DNA from: Bacteroidia bacterium
GTDB taxonomy: Bacteria; Bacteroidota; Bacteroidia; UKL13-3
DNA: 64,000 nt
Reading direction: 5' to 3'
Assembly (NCBI GenBank): GCA_044353855.1
Contig: JBILBF010000001.1
Span: 422,071 to 486,070, forward strand
The stretch's first letter is position 1; each line of letters begins with the position of its first letter. Positions 12,944-19,889 of this stretch are shown piece after piece. The notes under the pieces were generated by a model, which had not been told where the DNA came from, did no database searches, and saw nothing but the letters and a program-made list of their open reading frames with translations. Both the position numbers and the translations under genes were made by a program.

Positions 12944-14626
12944 TTAATATCCGGGCTTTGTTTCTTTATCTTTCAATCTTTCTTTAATATCCAATCTGTG
13001 TTTTCGGGCAGTATCAATAGCAATATCATATCCTGCATCTGCATGTCGAATCACTCCCATAGCAGGATCATTGTGTAAAACACGTTTTAACCTGCGAGCG
13101 GCATCCTCTGTTCCATCAGCCAAAATTACCATTCCTGCATGAATAGAATAGCCCATTCCAACACCACCACCATGGTGAACGGAAACCCAACTAGCACCAC
13201 CAGCTGTATTGATTAAGGCATTTAAAATTGGCCAATCAGCAACAGCATCACTTCCATCTTTCATGGCTTCCGTTTCGCGGTTTGGCGAAGCAACAGAACC
13301 AGTATCTAAATGGTCGCGGCCAATTACAATTGGACCTTTTACTTGACCTGTTCTAACCAATTCATTAAAAGCCAAAGCCGCTTTTTCTCTATCTCCTTGT
13401 CCTATCCAACAAATACGAGCTGGCAATCCTTGAAATGCAATGCGTTCTTGTGCCATGTCTATCCAGCGATGAAGGGATGTGTTTTCTGGAAACAATTCTT
13501 TCATTACTCGGTCGGTTACATAAATATCATTAGGGTCACCGCTTAAGGCTACCCAACGAAATGGGCCTTTTCCTTCGCAAAATAAAGGTCTAATATAAGC
13601 AGGTACAAATCCAGGAAACGAAAAAGCATTTTCTACATGACGCTGGTCTTTTGCCTGTCCGCGTAAATTGTTACCATAGTCAAAAACAATAGCTCCTTTA
13701 CTTTGTAGTTCAATCATTAATTTTACATGATGTGCCATGGTGTCCAATGATTTTTCAACGTATTTTACGGGCTCGGTTTTGCGCATATGGTCTGCTACTT
13801 CTTCTGCTATTCCTTCGGGATAATAACCATTCAACGGGTCATGTGCGGAAGTTTGATCAGTTAACAAATCGGGAATAATATTACGTTCAATTAGGCGCTC
13901 TAATAAATCGATTACATTGCACAATACGCCAATGGACAAACGTTGTCCAGCGGCCTTTGCTTTTAGCGCCATGTCAATAGCTTGATCAATATCCCTGCTC
14001 ATCACATCTAAATATCGTGTTTCAATTCGTTTTTTAATGCGCCACTCTACCATTTCGGCAGCCAAGCATACGCCATCACACATTGTTACCGATAAGGGCT
14101 GTGCTCCTCCCATACCACCCAAACCAGCAGTTACAGTTAAAGTGCCTTTTAGTGTTCCATTAAAATGTTGGCGAGCTGCTTCAGCAAAAGTTTCGTATGT
14201 GCCCTGTACAATTCCTTGTGAGCCAATATAAATCCAACTACCAGCAGTCATTTGGCCATACATCATCAATCCTTTTTTATCTAATTCGTGGAAGGTTTCC
14301 CAATTAGCCCACTTAGGAACCAACATAGAATTGGAGATGATAACGCGAGGAGCGTCTTTGTGTGTAGGCAAAATACCAACAGGCTTACCACTTTGTATCA
14401 ACAATGTTTCGTCTTCCTCTAAATCTTGCAAAGCCTTTACAATAAGCTCAAAGCTTTCCCAATTACGAGCAGCTTTTCCAATGCCACCGTATACGACTAA
14501 ATCCTCAGGTTTTTCAGCAACTTCGGGGTCTAAATTATTAAACAACATGCGCAATGCAGCTTCTTGTACCCATCCTTTGCAGCTTAATGTGTTGCCTGTT
14601 GCCGCGTGTAATTCTTTTCTTGCCAT
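12944..14626 (-). CDS. hutU: Urocanate hydratase
   Basis: [40 protein letters not shown]. Confidence 0.97.
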
Positions 14627-14675
14627 TTTATTTTATGATAAAGGTTTCGAAGGTAATGTTTTCTGATAAACTTGA

Positions 14676-15485
14676 TTAATCGCAAATATCGTTTGGTGAG
14701 CAAACAGCCCCTTCTGTTTCCCCCGTTTTTTCCAATTCGTTCCATGCTTGATTTAATGCACCCAAAAAGGTTTCAGAAGGTTGTGCCCCAGAAACCGCAT
14801 ACTTATTATTTAATACAAAAAAAGGAACACCTGTTACGCCAATTTTGTGTGATTCATCAATATCTTGGCGAACATTAGAGGCATAATTATCCGAAGCAAG
14901 AACTTGTTTGACTTCAGCTTCATTTAAACCGATTTCAACGGCTAAACGAGTTAAGGCTGCATGGTCTGCTGTGTTTTTACCATCTACAAAATAGGCTTTA
15001 AACAATTGCTCTTCCATTGCATCGCTTTTGTTTTTTGTTTTAGAAAATTGTATCAGGCGGTGAGCATCAAATGAATTTGCAACAACCGTTTTATCAAAAT
15101 TATAATGCAAACCAACTTCTTTTGCCATCGCAATTACATTTTCAGTAACCTCTTTTGTATAACCAATTGTCCATCCTTTGCTTTCTGCTAAATGCACTAA
15201 TGTGTTTTTAGTAGGGTCCGTTTTCAAGTCGGGCTGCAATTGGTAACTTTTCCAAACGACTTCGACTTCCTTTTGGTCCTCAAATTTTTCAAGTGCTGCT
15301 TCAAATTTACGTTTGCCGATATAACAAAACGGACACATTACATCACTCCAAATTTCTACTTTCATCTTTTTAGTTGTATTAGGCTTTTTTATATGTTTTT
15401 GTGCATTAGCCATTGTTCCAAAGCACAAAAGTAGCATACATATAACTATGCTAAAGCTGTTTGTTTTAATGATTTTGGTTAGCAC
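14676..15485 (-). CDS. DsbA/FrnE family thiol-disulfide oxidoreductase
   Basis: WSDVMCPFCYIG, GVPFF, SGAQ, C-terminal CSPNDIC tail; apparent N-terminal signal peptide. Confidence 0.9.
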   Translation of the reverse strand: MLTKIIKTNSFSIVICMLLLCFGTMANAQKHIKKPNTTKKMKVEIWSDVMCPFCYIGKRKFEAALEKFEDQKEVEVVWKSYQLQPDLKTDPTKNTLVHLAESKGWTIGYTKEVTENVIAMAKEVGLHYNFDKTVVANSFDAHRLIQFSKTKNKSDAMEEQLFKAYFVDGKNTADHAALTRLAVEIGLNEAEVKQVLASDNYASNVRQDIDESHKIGVTGVPFFVLNNKYAVSGAQPSETFLGALNQAWNELEKTGETEGAVCSPNDICD

Positions 15486-15561
15486 GAATAATTAAGTATA
15501 AGCGGGGAACAAAAAGAAGCAATAAAATGTTTAAAAAAAAGTAAGATATTCGTTCGCGATT

Positions 15562-15954
15562 TTGAAGTTCATATTTCAACATATCTCGTTGGTGTTGCTT
15601 GCCATTTTTACGGCAACTTTTGTGCCGTTTAATGTGTTACATCACCATGCCGAAGAAGATCATTTTGCTTATGTTCATGCTCATAAGGCCATTAAAAATC
15701 ATCATTGCGAATTGGATAGCCATTTTTGCCAAAAGGATTTAGAGCCGAATTGCGGTCATTCAGAACATATTAAAAACACCTTAGAAAACTGTTTTACTTG
15801 CGAGTTTCATTTCATCAAACATTTTGATCAAATACAATCAAAATCATTATTGTTAACAGAATCAGGGCTTAATGTATACAATAGCCTTATTGTTAAAAAG
15901 GAGCACCAAACAATACTTTTTATAAGCAATAAAGGACCGCCACGTTCAGTCTAG
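15562..15954 (+). CDS. His/Cys-rich leader protein (DUF2946/CruR-like architecture) upstream of a TonB receptor
   Basis: N-terminal hydrophobic segment, His-rich region, CFTC, C-terminal KGPP three codons before the stop; TTG start. Confidence 0.65.
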   Translation: MKFIFQHISLVLLAIFTATFVPFNVLHHHAEEDHFAYVHAHKAIKNHHCELDSHFCQKDLEPNCGHSEHIKNTLENCFTCEFHFIKHFDQIQSKSLLLTESGLNVYNSLIVKKEHQTILFISNKGPPRSV

Positions 15955-16009
15955 CCGTCATTGATGTTAACGCATTATTTCCAAAATTTTTATTAAAAAA
16001 AATATACCC

Positions 16010-18352
16010 ATGCGCATATTCTGTATGTTAGCGGTGTGTTTGTTTGTTAATAGTGTTTTAGCACAAAACACAAAACTGTTGTATTCTCTTAAAATCACAG
16101 TAAAGGATAGTATTACTGGATTGTTTTTGGAAGAAGCAACGGTTAAACTTACTAAACATGCACACGCACATGTAACCAATACAAGAGGTGACGTTGTTTT
16201 TGACACGCTAAGTGCGGGTCATTATCATTTAACGTGCACTTATATAGGCTATTATTCTTACGAAACAAGTATCGATTTGCCTAATCAATCTTGGGTTACC
16301 GTCTTGCTTTGTCCATCGAGTTACCATTTACATGAAATGATTATTGAAGGAAATGCAACCCAAAACAGGCAATCATTTTCAACACAATCGAGTACTGCTT
16401 TAAATCAAACACAAATTGAAAAAATGCGGGGGCAAAACCTAGGCGAGCTACTCAAAAATGTAAATGGCATGACGACTTTAAACACCGGTCCCGGGATTTC
16501 AAAACCAGTATTGCGAGGGTTGCATAGCAATCGGGTGGTTATGCTCAATAATGGAGTAAGGCAAGAAGAACAACAATGGGGTAGTGAACATGCACCTGCA
16601 ATAGATCCTTTTGCGGTAAACAAAGTTGAAGTGATAAAAGGCGCTGCCTCTGTTGAATATGGACCGGAAGCCATTGGTGGTGTAGTAAGACTTTCACCTA
16701 GGCCATACTCAACCATGAATGGCCTAAATGGAGAAATATCGTTACAAGGGTTTTCGAACAACAAACAAGGTTCGGCAACAGCAATGCTTCAAGGGACACA
16801 TTTAAGTAAACAGCAATTAAGTTGGCGCGCACAAGGAACATTACGAAAAGCGGGCGATTCGCGCGCTCCCGATTATGTGATTTCCAATACAGGTTTTGAT
16901 GAGCAAAACGGAAATGTTTCGGCAGCGTACTTAAATAAAAAATTGTATGTAGAGGTTTTTGCAAGCGTGTTTAATTCAACAATTGGTATTATGAGGGCCG
17001 CTCATATTGGAAGTTCCACAGATTTGGTAAAAGCGATAAATAGTGATAAGCCGTTCATTGTAAAACCATTTACTTATGCCATTGGCAAGCCTTACCAACA
17101 AGTATGGCACGAATTACAAAGTTTTAAACTGTCATACGCTTTTACAGTATTGGGTAAACTTGAATTTCAAGCGGCACGGCAACTAAACTCAAGGAAAGAA
17201 TACGATTTAGGGCTATCATGGAATCCGCAATCGCAGACAAAACCCGCTTACCATTTAACTTTAACAACGTATACTTATGACGGTGTATTTGAACATAAAA
17301 AATGGAAAAACATTGTTGGAAAAGTAGGTGGGAGCCTAATGGCTCAATCTAATTATACGGAAGGAATGCAGAAGCCCTTGATTCCAAATTTCATTGCCAA
17401 TACGTATGGTTTTTTCGTTTTTGAAAAATGGAAAAAAGGCAGATGGACAGCCGAGTTAGGATCAAGGTTCGACAAGCGAAATCAGACTATTTACCAACGG
17501 AATAATAAGAATGAAATTATTACCCAAAGGAGAGGTTACCAGCGAGCAACTGCAATTGTTGGAGGGTCTTATATGCTCTCGGAAAAGCTAAAATTGAGTT
17601 CTACTTTTTCATCAGCATGGCGACCGCCATCGGTAAATGAATTGTATAGCAATGGCCTGCACAATGGAACAGCAACGTATGAAATTGGCGACTCGAATTT
17701 GATACCTGAACGCAGTTATAACGTGGATGTAAACCTAAAATACCAGCACACAAAATGGGTTTTAGAGACCAGTATTTTTAGGAATACCATTTATAACTTT
17801 ATTTACCAACTACCAAAACAAACTCCAACCATAACTCTCCGCGGCACGTTTCCTTCATTTGTATTTACCCAAACGGATGCGGTTATGCAAGGTGCGGAAA
17901 TGAATGTTTCATATTTTATTAGCAACCATTTAAGCACAACCGGAGCAATTAGTTATCTGCTTGCAGATGATGCTGCCAATAATCAACCGCTCATTTATAT
18001 GCCTGCAAATAGAGTAAAACTTGGGGTACAATATCAAACCAATACCCTTTGGAAAGCAGAGCATTTTTTTGCTGAATTGAATTGGCAATATATAGCAGAA
18101 CAAAAACGCTTTCCGCAAAATTTGGATTACAAAAGTCCGCCACCTGCTTATAATTTACTTGATATAAATATGGGTTTTGAATTTCCAGTAAAACAACAAC
18201 ACATAAGGGTTTCTGCCAGTGTAAATAATGTATTTAACGAAACCTACCGCGACTACCTAAGCCGATTTAGGTATTTTACCGATGAGCCCGGACGCAATTT
18301 TATTGTAAGGCTTACTATTCCTTTTCAACTATTTAAAACAAATAATAAATAA
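16010..18352 (+). CDS. TonB-dependent receptor, probably for a transition metal
   Basis: Signal peptide, N-terminal extension with HAHAH, plug motif KPVLRGLHSNRV...QQWGSEHAPAID, C-terminal GRNFIVRLTIPF. Confidence 0.88.
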   Translation: MRIFCMLAVCLFVNSVLAQNTKLLYSLKITVKDSITGLFLEEATVKLTKHAHAHVTNTRGDVVFDTLSAGHYHLTCTYIGYYSYETSIDLPNQSWVTVLLCPSSYHLHEMIIEGNATQNRQSFSTQSSTALNQTQIEKMRGQNLGELLKNVNGMTTLNTGPGISKPVLRGLHSNRVVMLNNGVRQEEQQWGSEHAPAIDPFAVNKVEVIKGAASVEYGPEAIGGVVRLSPRPYSTMNGLNGEISLQGFSNNKQGSATAMLQGTHLSKQQLSWRAQGTLRKAGDSRAPDYVISNTGFDEQNGNVSAAYLNKKLYVEVFASVFNSTIGIMRAAHIGSSTDLVKAINSDKPFIVKPFTYAIGKPYQQVWHELQSFKLSYAFTVLGKLEFQAARQLNSRKEYDLGLSWNPQSQTKPAYHLTLTTYTYDGVFEHKKWKNIVGKVGGSLMAQSNYTEGMQKPLIPNFIANTYGFFVFEKWKKGRWTAELGSRFDKRNQTIYQRNNKNEIITQRRGYQRATAIVGGSYMLSEKLKLSSTFSSAWRPPSVNELYSNGLHNGTATYEIGDSNLIPERSYNVDVNLKYQHTKWVLETSIFRNTIYNFIYQLPKQTPTITLRGTFPSFVFTQTDAVMQGAEMNVSYFISNHLSTTGAISYLLADDAANNQPLIYMPANRVKLGVQYQTNTLWKAEHFFAELNWQYIAEQKRFPQNLDYKSPPPAYNLLDINMGFEFPVKQQHIRVSASVNNVFNETYRDYLSRFRYFTDEPGRNFIVRLTIPFQLFKTNNK

Positions 18353-18356
18353 CAAC

Positions 18357-18965
18357 ATGAATTACCTAAAAAACACAGTATCATTTCTGGCAATAACAGC
18401 CCTTATTTTTATTACATCGTGTAAAAAAGAAGACGATAAAAAAGACGTTACCATACCGCCAATTATAAATCCTGAGGAACAGATTACAACGGTAATATTA
18501 AAAGGTTACGATGAAAACAATCCCAACGATATTAGTCGTCAGTTTGCAATAAAGTGGGAAGACATGGATGGAACAGGAGGCAATGCTCCAATAATTGATT
18601 CATTAGTCTTGGACACCGGCACTCAGTATCGAGTTCAGGTTTTACTACTTGATAAAACAAAGACTCCTTGGGATACGATCTCGAACGAAGTAGAAAAAGA
18701 GAAAAATGTGCATCAGTTTTTTTACACCCCAAGTGTTTCTGTGAATGGTAAAATGGAAGTAGAAGTGCTAGATTTTGATGACAACATTCCAAAATTGCCC
18801 GTGGGTTTGGCGTTTCTCATGAATATTGCTGCCGAACCAACTTTTGCAATCCCATTGGTTGGAAAATTGGGTGTTGTGTTAAGCCATTATGATGGCATAC
18901 CTAAAACGATAACGCCCTCGCCTGAAAGCGATATTGATATTGTTTTTCCGGTAAAATTGAAATAA
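18357..18965 (+). CDS. Surface lipoprotein associated with the TonB receptor
   Basis: Lipobox ITSC + KKEDD; motifs EEQITTV, HQFFY, LSH; 4 nt after the receptor stop. Confidence 0.75.
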   Translation: MNYLKNTVSFLAITALIFITSCKKEDDKKDVTIPPIINPEEQITTVILKGYDENNPNDISRQFAIKWEDMDGTGGNAPIIDSLVLDTGTQYRVQVLLLDKTKTPWDTISNEVEKEKNVHQFFYTPSVSVNGKMEVEVLDFDDNIPKLPVGLAFLMNIAAEPTFAIPLVGKLGVVLSHYDGIPKTITPSPESDIDIVFPVKLK

Positions 18966-19038
18966 AAACCAGCCTGAACATATATACGCTCATTGCGCTT
19001 TTTTTGAGGCGGGGGTGTATATATGTCTTTATAGATTG

Positions 19039-19728
19039 TTATTCTTTTTTTGTTTTCTTTTTGCCATCAATTACCAGCACTATTTCTCCTTTTACAGGCT
19101 TTGATTCAAAATACATAATTAACTCATCTAATGTTCCGTTTTTTGTTTCTTCAAACATTTTGGTAAGCTCTCGAGAGACAGATGCAAGCCTTTCACCACC
19201 AAAAAACTCTTTTAATTGATGTAAACATTTTACCAATCGGTGAGGAGACTCATATAAAATAATCGTCCGTTCTTCTTCAGCTAATTTTTTGAGCATCGTT
19301 TGCCGGCCTTTTTTATCTGGCAAAAACCCTTCAAAACAAAAACTATCGCTTGGCAAACCACTTTTTACCAAAGCAGGAACAAAAGCTGTTGGGCCAGGCA
19401 AACACTCAATTGCAATTTGATTGCGCAAACATTCGCGAACCAATAAAAAACCGGGATCACTAATAGCTGGAGTACCTGCATCACTTACCAATGCTAAGTT
19501 TTTACCGTTTTCTAACATCGTTATAAACCGTTGCAGTTCTCGGTGTTCATTGTGCATGTGGTAAGGAATGAGCGGCTTTTCAATCTCATAATGTTTAATC
19601 AGTTTAATAGATTGCCTTGTGTCTTCGGCCAAAATCGCATCCACTTCTTTTAATATTCTTAAAGCACGAAGGGTAATATCCTCCATATTACCGATGGGTG
19701 TGGGTATTAAATATAATTTACCTGCCAT
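19039..19728 (-). CDS. rsmI: 16S rRNA C1402 2'-O-methyltransferase
   Basis: PTPIGNMEDIT, AEDTR, VSDAGTPAISDPG, YESPHR, RELTKMFEE. Confidence 0.96.
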   Translation of the reverse strand: MAGKLYLIPTPIGNMEDITLRALRILKEVDAILAEDTRQSIKLIKHYEIEKPLIPYHMHNEHRELQRFITMLENGKNLALVSDAGTPAISDPGFLLVRECLRNQIAIECLPGPTAFVPALVKSGLPSDSFCFEGFLPDKKGRQTMLKKLAEEERTIILYESPHRLVKCLHQLKEFFGGERLASVSRELTKMFEETKNGTLDELIMYFESKPVKGEIVLVIDGKKKTKKE

Positions 19729-19889
19729 GGCAACGAATGTAAGGAAAGTTCACGGTTGATAGATTAAGGTAATCGTTTTTTAAGTTTAAGCAACTCCAAT
19801 AATTGCCAAGCAAACTTATTCAACCCAATTAACTGCTTTTTTTTTCGAGTTAAAAAATTAATTTAGCGCCCACTTAAAACAAACAAAGT

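Follow-up and report, generated by a model that had tools for sequence, protein, structure and literature searches.

The window analyzed here is a 64,000-nucleotide (nt) stretch from a Bacteroidia bacterium (assembly GCA_044353855.1, contig JBILBF010000001.1) in which a small open reading frame (ORF) precedes the gene of a TonB-dependent receptor. An earlier note, made from the letters of this DNA, had read the small ORF, called the leader below, as a metal-sensing ribosome-arrest peptide resembling CruR of Bordetella. We analyzed the leader, the receptor gene and the lipoprotein gene that follows it, together with related loci in other genomes. The features are listed with their coordinates in Table 1.

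All elements on which the note was built are present in the sequence and its translation. The leader begins with a hydrophobic segment and carries the motifs HHH (residues 27-29), HAH (39-41), HHC (47-49), HFC (54-56) and CGH (64-66), followed by CFTC; KGPP stands three codons before the stop, and the receptor gene starts with an ATG 55 nt downstream. The spacer between CFTC and KGPP, put at about 40 residues, has exactly 43 intervening residues. Since no in-frame ATG occurs anywhere in the leader ORF, translation must start at TTG or GTG. The first possible start of the leader frame is TTG or GTG in 16 of the 17 loci examined, a count in which non-ATG starts are over-represented because the ORF finder picks the first of ATG, GTG or TTG. 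The weak start codon may perhaps be part of the design. The leader ORF is present as a single copy in the genome (2.48 Mb, 8 contigs searched). Contigs from four runs were identical to the window over 15450-16450, so that they offered no population variation from which to read selection. AlphaFold predicted a helix over residues 2-26 with a predicted local distance difference test score (pLDDT) of about 95 and gave low confidence for residues 41-90 (pLDDT 50-62). For the leader as a whole the AlphaFold model reached a predicted template modelling score (pTM) of 0.29 and the Atlas model a pLDDT of 0.50, and a stable globular fold is suggested by neither model.

Table 1. Features of the leader locus, with positions counted from the first letter of the window
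Feature	Residues	Position	Strand	Basis or remarks
DsbA-like oxidoreductase gene, divergent, upstream of the leader		14676..15485	-	Pfam
Leader ORF, first gene of the operon		15562..15954	+	130 amino acids (aa) plus stop, TTG start
Predicted hydrophobic N-terminal helix, export signal or membrane anchor	8-26	15583..15639	+	sequence, AlphaFold model
Putative metal-binding His/Cys-rich segment	27-86	15640..15819	+	conserved columns in alignments A1 and A2
CFTC, a CxxC motif	77-80	15790..15801	+	sequence, family alignment
43-residue spacer of fixed length	81-123	15802..15930	+	unconserved from after FHFIKH to S-N
KGPP, putative arrest motif	124-127	15931..15942	+	codons AAA GGA CCG CCA
Three-residue tail R-S-V and TAG stop		15943..15954	+	sequence
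Intergenic spacer, 55 nt, AT-rich		15955..16009	+	GC 0.25, C 10, G 4
TonB-dependent receptor, presumed regulated gene		16010..18352	+	780 aa; Plug, barrel and CarboxypepD_reg domains
Lipoprotein, third gene of the operon		18357..18965	+	202 aa; no Pfam or NCBIfam family

The leader matched no Pfam or NCBIfam family at E<=1. A phmmer search of 1.84 billion representatives returned 60 relatives at E<=1e-3, 39 of them at E<=1e-10, and word-indexed searches yielded a 93 %-identical relative (P0002) and three further proteins. Sixty-one leader-family sequences were aligned (alignment A2), and the C-terminal motif was tallied in the window protein and 66 database proteins, 67 in all. No common Pfam or NCBIfam family, DUF2946 included, was found in the 61 members at E<=0.1. 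In A2, C77, P126 and P127 are invariant, and H27, H29, C64, H66, H69, C80 and G125 are kept in at least 90 % of the sequences. Within the His/Cys segment, H27, H29, C49, C56, C64, H66, H69, C77, C80 and H83 are invariant or nearly so in A1 and A2.

Conservation of CxxC and [RK]GPP at a fixed spacing, which the CruR-like reading implied, was borne out. [KR]xPP was found near the C terminus of 64 of the 67 proteins, 1-8 residues from the end (mode 3), as KGPP (42), RGPP (16), KSPP (3), KDPP, RDPP and RAPP (one each). The three proteins lacking it are P0008, an 89-aa fragment, P0048 and P0060, which is repetitive (183 aa) and probably unrelated to the family. Asn directly precedes the K/R of the motif in 50 of the 64 proteins. 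The distance from CxxC to this K/R is 43 residues in 60 of 63 proteins, 44 in one and 45 in two, and spacer positions 87-122 are free of gaps and average a near-random 3.59 bits of column entropy, the corresponding means being 0.56 bits in NKGPP and 2.2 bits in the His/Cys segment. On the N-terminal side of CxxC, the distance from the first HxH ranges from 24 to 67 residues. A spacer of exact length and free sequence is what would be expected of a segment that spans the ribosomal exit tunnel. The codons for K/R, G and both prolines vary synonymously among the 17 loci, showing that selection acts on the peptide.

These data also bear on two other explanations. The leader could be a stable membrane-anchored or periplasmic metal-binding protein that acts in trans, for example a metallochaperone, with NKGPP as a structural or interaction motif. 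The conserved His and Cys positions and the hydrophobic N-terminal helix would suit such a protein, and genes for a receptor and a lipoprotein nearby would be equally natural company for an accessory protein. In a folded domain, however, conservation of sequence would be expected, whereas the spacer keeps its length alone. The low pTM of the leader model, a motif that always lies 1-8 residues from the stop and a gene that is always the first of its operon likewise speak against a protein acting in trans, and together with the published observations given below they make this explanation unlikely. In the other explanation the leader frame is open by chance or was wrongly called as a gene, and the receptor is under an ordinary transcription factor only. 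This explanation draws on the non-ATG start and on the missing family annotation, but is hardly credible in view of 60 relatives with peptide-level conservation and synonymous codon variation, and of the conserved gene order described in the following.

Related loci came from two sources. The A1 scan of genome contigs matched at least 599 stretches; among the matches listed, 14 passed tblastn, and nine of these 14 are real Bacteroidota loci (L002-L010). The five others, from Streptomyces, were dropped, as the match there comprised 22 His-rich residues only. A search of 401 Bacteroidota genomes with the A2 profile was positive in 12, the window's own among them, and added the 11 places L017-L027; four of these have a second piece (L028-L031), which was left out of the count. 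A Plug-domain receptor is the next gene on the same strand in 17 of the 20 related loci (L002-L010, among the matches listed, and L017-L027), so the neighborhood of leader and receptor noted in the window recurs in its relatives. The gap between the two genes is 39-116 nt (window and 16 loci; L010 was not measured). For the next gene of the remaining three loci (L024, L025 and L026) Pfam gave no match; in L024 and L026 it aligns to the third-gene lipoprotein of the window with 26 % and 18 % identity, respectively.

Upstream neighbors of the leader are not conserved and include urocanase, DsbA (window and L002) and yidC (L008 and L009). In L002 a DsbA fragment lies at the same place as in the window; it is not found there in the other eight loci. 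The yidC genes of L008 and L009 lie directly upstream of the leader on the same strand (L008:2070-3920 and L009:2099-3916, both +), which is probably a coincidence. Arrest peptides are known to be linked to YidC. From 15308 to 19811 the plus strand has a single match to the promoter motif TAnnTTTG (Bacteroidota-type -7), at 15308-15315, and the window shows no enrichment of this motif (71 observed, 109 expected).

The closest solved relative of the receptor is the zinc receptor ZnuD (4rdr, E 1.8e-27), with the copper porin OprC next (about 1e-11). Its N-terminal CarboxypepD_reg-like domain contains a K-H-x-H-x-H stretch at residues of about 48-56 (TKHAHAHVT), and this His stretch recurs as KHKHVH in L002 and as GHRHLH in L008 and L009. 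The lipoprotein is encoded directly after the receptor in eight of the nine contig-scan loci among the matches listed. Its residues E41, E111, H119 and H177 are near-invariant, and the lipoproteins of L008-L010 carry a His/Asp-rich stretch after the lipobox. Atlas lists only unnamed Bacteroidota clusters for it, and its own model is confident (pTM 0.76). The lipoprotein may be a metal-binding partner of the receptor. The earlier note had guessed at a metal other than copper, and the closeness of the receptor sequence to ZnuD fits this guess. Zinc would be more likely than copper as the sensed metal because of the ZnuD match, the mixed Cys/His cluster of the leader, the His/Asp-rich lipoprotein variants and a COG0523 GTPase encoded behind one related leader (L035).

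The organization of the locus was compared with that of known leaders. CruR (Bp2923, DUF2946) of Bordetella pertussis is the leader of the cruR-bfrG-bp2921 operon; according to the published account, binding of copper relieves its arrest and lets Rho terminate transcription before the receptor gene, its spacer is conserved to within 1-2 residues, and five additional residues abolish copper control (PMC9426467). Arrest of CruR at two Pro codons was later reported in vitro (PMC12992588). Like CruR, the window leader opens an operon in which a TonB-dependent receptor gene comes second. Both leaders have a CxxC motif and, at the N terminus, a transmembrane segment or export signal, in both three residues follow the C-terminal motif, and no Fur-type site is evident at either locus. 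The fixed spacers measure 45 residues in CruR and 43 in the window leader. This layout, which copies that of a leader regulatory in function (PMC9426467), is a further point against a protein acting in trans. The two systems differ in the motif (RAPP in CruR, NKGPP in the window leader), in the His/Cys cluster, which is much larger in the window leader (five Cys and at least eight His), and in the third gene, a PepSY_TM protein in the CruR operon and a lipoprotein in the window. Moreover, the window receptor is nearest to ZnuD and not to copper receptors, and the window belongs to the Bacteroidota, whereas DUF2946 is described as mostly proteobacterial (PMC9426467).

A second DUF2946 leader is CutF of Rhodobacter capsulatus, the leader of cutFOG. 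It is reported to act exclusively in cis and to sense metal while still a nascent chain; here copper induces stalling, and a stem-loop over the ribosome-binding site of the multicopper oxidase melts (PMC9973294, bioRxiv 10.1101/2025.02.05.636593). CutF, too, is small and exported and combines a Cys motif with a proline motif at the C terminus, but has CxxxC where the window leader has CxxC. Its reported failure to be detectable as a protein in cells also argues against a stable product acting in trans. In the published work on ApdA, ApdP, ApcA and SecM, too, a small exported protein with a C-terminal x-[GA]-P-P lies upstream of the regulated gene. All four carry Arg in the motif where the window leader has Lys124. 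Gly at the second position is the strongest form of the RAPP/RGPP class, and RGPP itself is the motif of the 16 leader-family members counted above. RAPP/RGPP upstream ORFs have been surveyed upstream of TonB-related genes (PMC12992588).

The window leader could also be an arrest leader that answers to a signal other than metal scarcity relieved by binding. Its stall could be induced by metal as in CutF, or the nascent chain could report on its export, on its insertion into the membrane or on whether its five cysteines are thiols or disulfides. The opposite copper responses and the differing signal-peptide need of CruR and CutF, reported for members of one family, speak for such a possibility. 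The N-terminal hydrophobic helix, the divergent DsbA-like gene in the window and L002, yidC in L008 and L009, and published reports of RAPP-type leaders upstream of DsbA and thioredoxin genes are in line with such a role. Against it, the downstream gene encodes an uptake receptor, and not a Sec, YidC or Dsb component, in the 17 of 20 loci; DsbA is a neighbor in two of ten places (the window and nine loci) and yidC also in two of ten. In addition, His is conserved as strongly as Cys, which speaks for metal coordination rather than for disulfides alone. We consider another signal quite unlikely, even more so than an action in trans.

Weighing anatomy and conservation together, we conclude that the leader probably senses a metal, possibly zinc, as a nascent chain in the manner of CruR and with an arrest motif of the Lys type. 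From the likeness to CruR we infer the following course of stalling, relief and control. The leader would be the cis-acting translated leader of a three-gene operon (leader, ZnuD-like receptor and lipoprotein) on the CruR plan. Translation of N-K-G-P-P would be expected to stall when Pro126 occupies the P site of the ribosome and Pro127 the A site, at the formation of the peptide bond between them; this position is taken from the toeprint of CruR. In the stalled ribosome the 43 spacer residues would occupy the exit tunnel, with CxxC and the His/Cys cluster that precedes it at the tunnel exit, just beyond it or, if the N-terminal helix is membrane-targeted, in the translocon. Binding of metal to the cluster would be expected to fold or pull the nascent chain and thereby release the stall, and the dwell time of the ribosome at the end of the leader would set the amount of receptor mRNA that is made or used. 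By analogy with CruR, metal scarcity would lead to stalling and switch the receptor on, and metal sufficiency would release the ribosome and switch it off. Coupling to the receptor gene might occur through Rho-dependent termination or polarity, through mRNA stability or through something else. The stronger proposition, that NKGPP is a true Lys-type arrest motif on Bacteroidota ribosomes and that the leader senses zinc and sets expression of the ZnuD-like receptor, is held tentatively, as a real possibility with somewhat less than an even chance of being right.

Several observations weigh against the CruR-like reading, starting with the gap between leader and receptor. It is AT-rich, unstructured and short, which leaves the coupling step without a visible substrate. 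The cruR-bfrG gap, by comparison, is 162 nt long and a site of Rho-dependent termination, and the stem-loop described between cutF and cutO has no counterpart in the window gap. No significant fold was found over 15900-16050 (z -0.05) or from the leader stop to the receptor start in the window (z +1.23), Rfam gave 0 matches at E<=1 over 14500-19500, and the 55-nt gap contains no plus-strand terminator-like site. A CutF-like stem-loop or attenuator at the window was dropped, as there is no fold, Rfam match or terminator in or around the gap.

Among the 17 loci, the gaps of 12 fold better than mononucleotide shuffles (mean z -1.65); those of the window's closest group do not. In L005, L017, L018, L020, L022, L023 and L027 the gaps reach z values between -2.2 and -6.8, and a hairpin follows closely on the stop codon; such a gap hairpin was not found in the window, L002, L003 or L006. 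Subgroups may differ in how the coupling works. In the leader-receptor gap C outnumbers G in 14 of the 17 loci, a count that has no baseline, and Rho is encoded in the genome. Rho-dependent polarity is our leading guess for the coupling, with mRNA stability as the alternative. Bacteroidota generally do not rely on Shine-Dalgarno pairing.

A further objection concerns the Lys of the motif. All 19 substitutions of the motif Arg are reported to abolish arrest in ApcA, ApdA and ApdP, and the Arg of SecM had been described as irreplaceable before; these substitution tests were made in B. subtilis and E. coli (PMC12992588). A Lys motif is thus without experimental precedent, and the published requirement for Arg argues against stalling at KGPP, at least on ribosomes of E. 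coli and B. subtilis. The same requirement favors a protein acting in trans. The CutF proline motif, moreover, is reported not to be a strong staller by itself. At the second motif position, Gly is described as fully permissive or stronger and Ser or Asp as partly permissive (PMC12992588), and the residues that occupy this position in the leader family (G, S, D and A) are exactly the published permissive set. Lys occupies the first position in 46 of the 67 family members (KGPP, KSPP and KDPP). The proposal that Lys replaces Arg as a variant held insofar as both forms occur within one family and among close relatives: L010 ends in TRGPP, with a 43-residue spacer and a sensor much like that of the window. 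K and R forms are mixed within clades with values of 88-92 in the Shimodaira-Hasegawa-like approximate likelihood ratio test. The K/R tree is weakly resolved, with four of 58 inner branches well supported; the quick tree needs 11 K/R changes, and the supported branches force only one. Counting of K/R switches from the tree was dropped for this reason.

The Fig EV3 source data of PMC12992588 count KGPP with the 50 tetrapeptides that are most under-represented, with a mean bias in Bacteroidota of 0.068 of expectation (median 0), below the means in this phylum for RGPP (0.173), RAPP (0.137) and RAGP (0.134). This strong avoidance of KGPP in Bacteroidota proteomes is another point against a structural or interaction motif in a protein acting in trans. 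In the genome of the window, [KR][GA]PP was observed twice in 2007 crude ORFs, compared with 7.8 expected from residue frequencies, a deficit of roughly P = 0.02 (Poisson) based on small numbers. The only other occurrence in this ORF set is APKGPPPY at residue 36 of an uncharacterized 262-aa protein (L053; G000:C8:13185-13973, minus strand), which has a signal-like N terminus, one internal hydrophobic segment and no Pfam family.

In PMC12992588 KGPP appears as a row of the Fig EV3 source data and has no mention in the main text. The survey reported there extracted RAPP and RGPP proteins only, so that KGPP leaders lie outside its net. Family-specific strings (FHFIK and others) did not occur in the searched part of its supplements; HHHAE gave 16 matches in supplementary file 6, of which the rows displayed are unrelated RAPP proteins, and RGPP-type family members may be listed in the rest of the supplements. 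By title or abstract, none of the papers listed in a literature search for KGPP and ribosome concerned bacterial arrest peptides, and no description of a Bacteroidota arrest leader before TonB-dependent or zinc genes was found in the literature searched.

The kinship with DUF2946 suggested by the earlier note stood in part. The Pfam model PF11162 (gathering score 23.7 bits) matched none of the 61 leader-family members at E<=0.1 and gave no match in a six-frame search of the window's genome, and comparison of A2 by hhalign with eight RAPP-type ORFs alone reached 20.8 % (E 1.1e-3, 13 columns); these results speak against a firm claim of common descent with CruR. A peripheral relative, G233 (RRGPP), is matched by both profiles and scores 19.1 bits to PF11162, which is below the cut-off. 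In the 401 Bacteroidota genomes PF11162 gave 30 weak matches at E<=0.01, four of them over the cut-off. The small ORFs matched combine a transmembrane segment and His residues with CxxC, a spacer of 41-47 residues and R[AG]PP. Comparison of A2 with 13 of these PF11162-found ORFs gave 96.7 % (E 4.3e-10, 108 columns), and 84 % (E 7.6e-6) without the transmembrane segment; E was 0.053 in the reversed control and 0.18 or weaker in all 20 column shuffles. The leader family is therefore firmly tied to RGPP-type Bacteroidota leaders and loosely, through them, to DUF2946 proper. The leader appears CruR-like in design, and common descent with CruR is plausible from these alignments. DUF2946 clusters also appear in Atlas, at cosine 0.95, and serve as no more than a lead. 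The 61 and 13 proteins scanned gave no match to an NCBIfam model of the name 'HYC_CC_PP family' for small Bacteroidota proteins.

Downstream of the PF11162-matched ORFs lie receptors, lipoproteins or a CobW/COG0523 GTPase (L035, G220:C87), and the leaders L032, L036-L038, L044 and L045 include some before lipoproteins with H-x-E-A-x-G after the lipobox. Nascent-chain metal sensing may be broader in Bacteroidota than the receptor case.

Two further points against the CruR-like reading come from the models and from the receptor. AlphaFold places helices over the leader spacer with a pLDDT of 78-87; such predicted helices could also fit a small helical protein and thus favor an action in trans. 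The receptor has NCBIfam matches to heme, ZnuD and copper models, all below their cut-offs, and its match to ZnuD is partial. Taken together, the CruR-like reading is supported in that it survived every computational test that could be run.

Already known are the principle of CruR and CutF and the fact that RAPP/RGPP leaders are widespread ahead of TonB-related genes. New are a Bacteroidota leader family with an enlarged His/Cys sensor that no model recognizes, its dominant Lys-type motif, and an operon of a ZnuD-like receptor and a lipoprotein behind such a leader. Secretion and copper genes are known to be under the control of RAPP-class arrest peptides, whose motif Arg is considered essential. 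A Lys family with a CruR-like ruler suggests either that the motif rules differ between the ribosomes of the phyla or that Gly rescues Lys. In Bacteroidota, where post-transcriptional control is little known, initiation independent of Shine-Dalgarno pairing changes the coupling mechanisms that are possible. The leader family would extend nascent-chain metal sensing to this phylum, and probably to a metal other than copper. If the reading is true, the leader would be the first metal sensor of the arrest-peptide kind to be described in Bacteroidota, arrest of the Lys type would contradict the rule of an irreplaceable Arg derived from E. coli and B. subtilis, and the about 15-fold avoidance of KGPP in Bacteroidota proteomes, an unremarked entry of a published list, would be explained.

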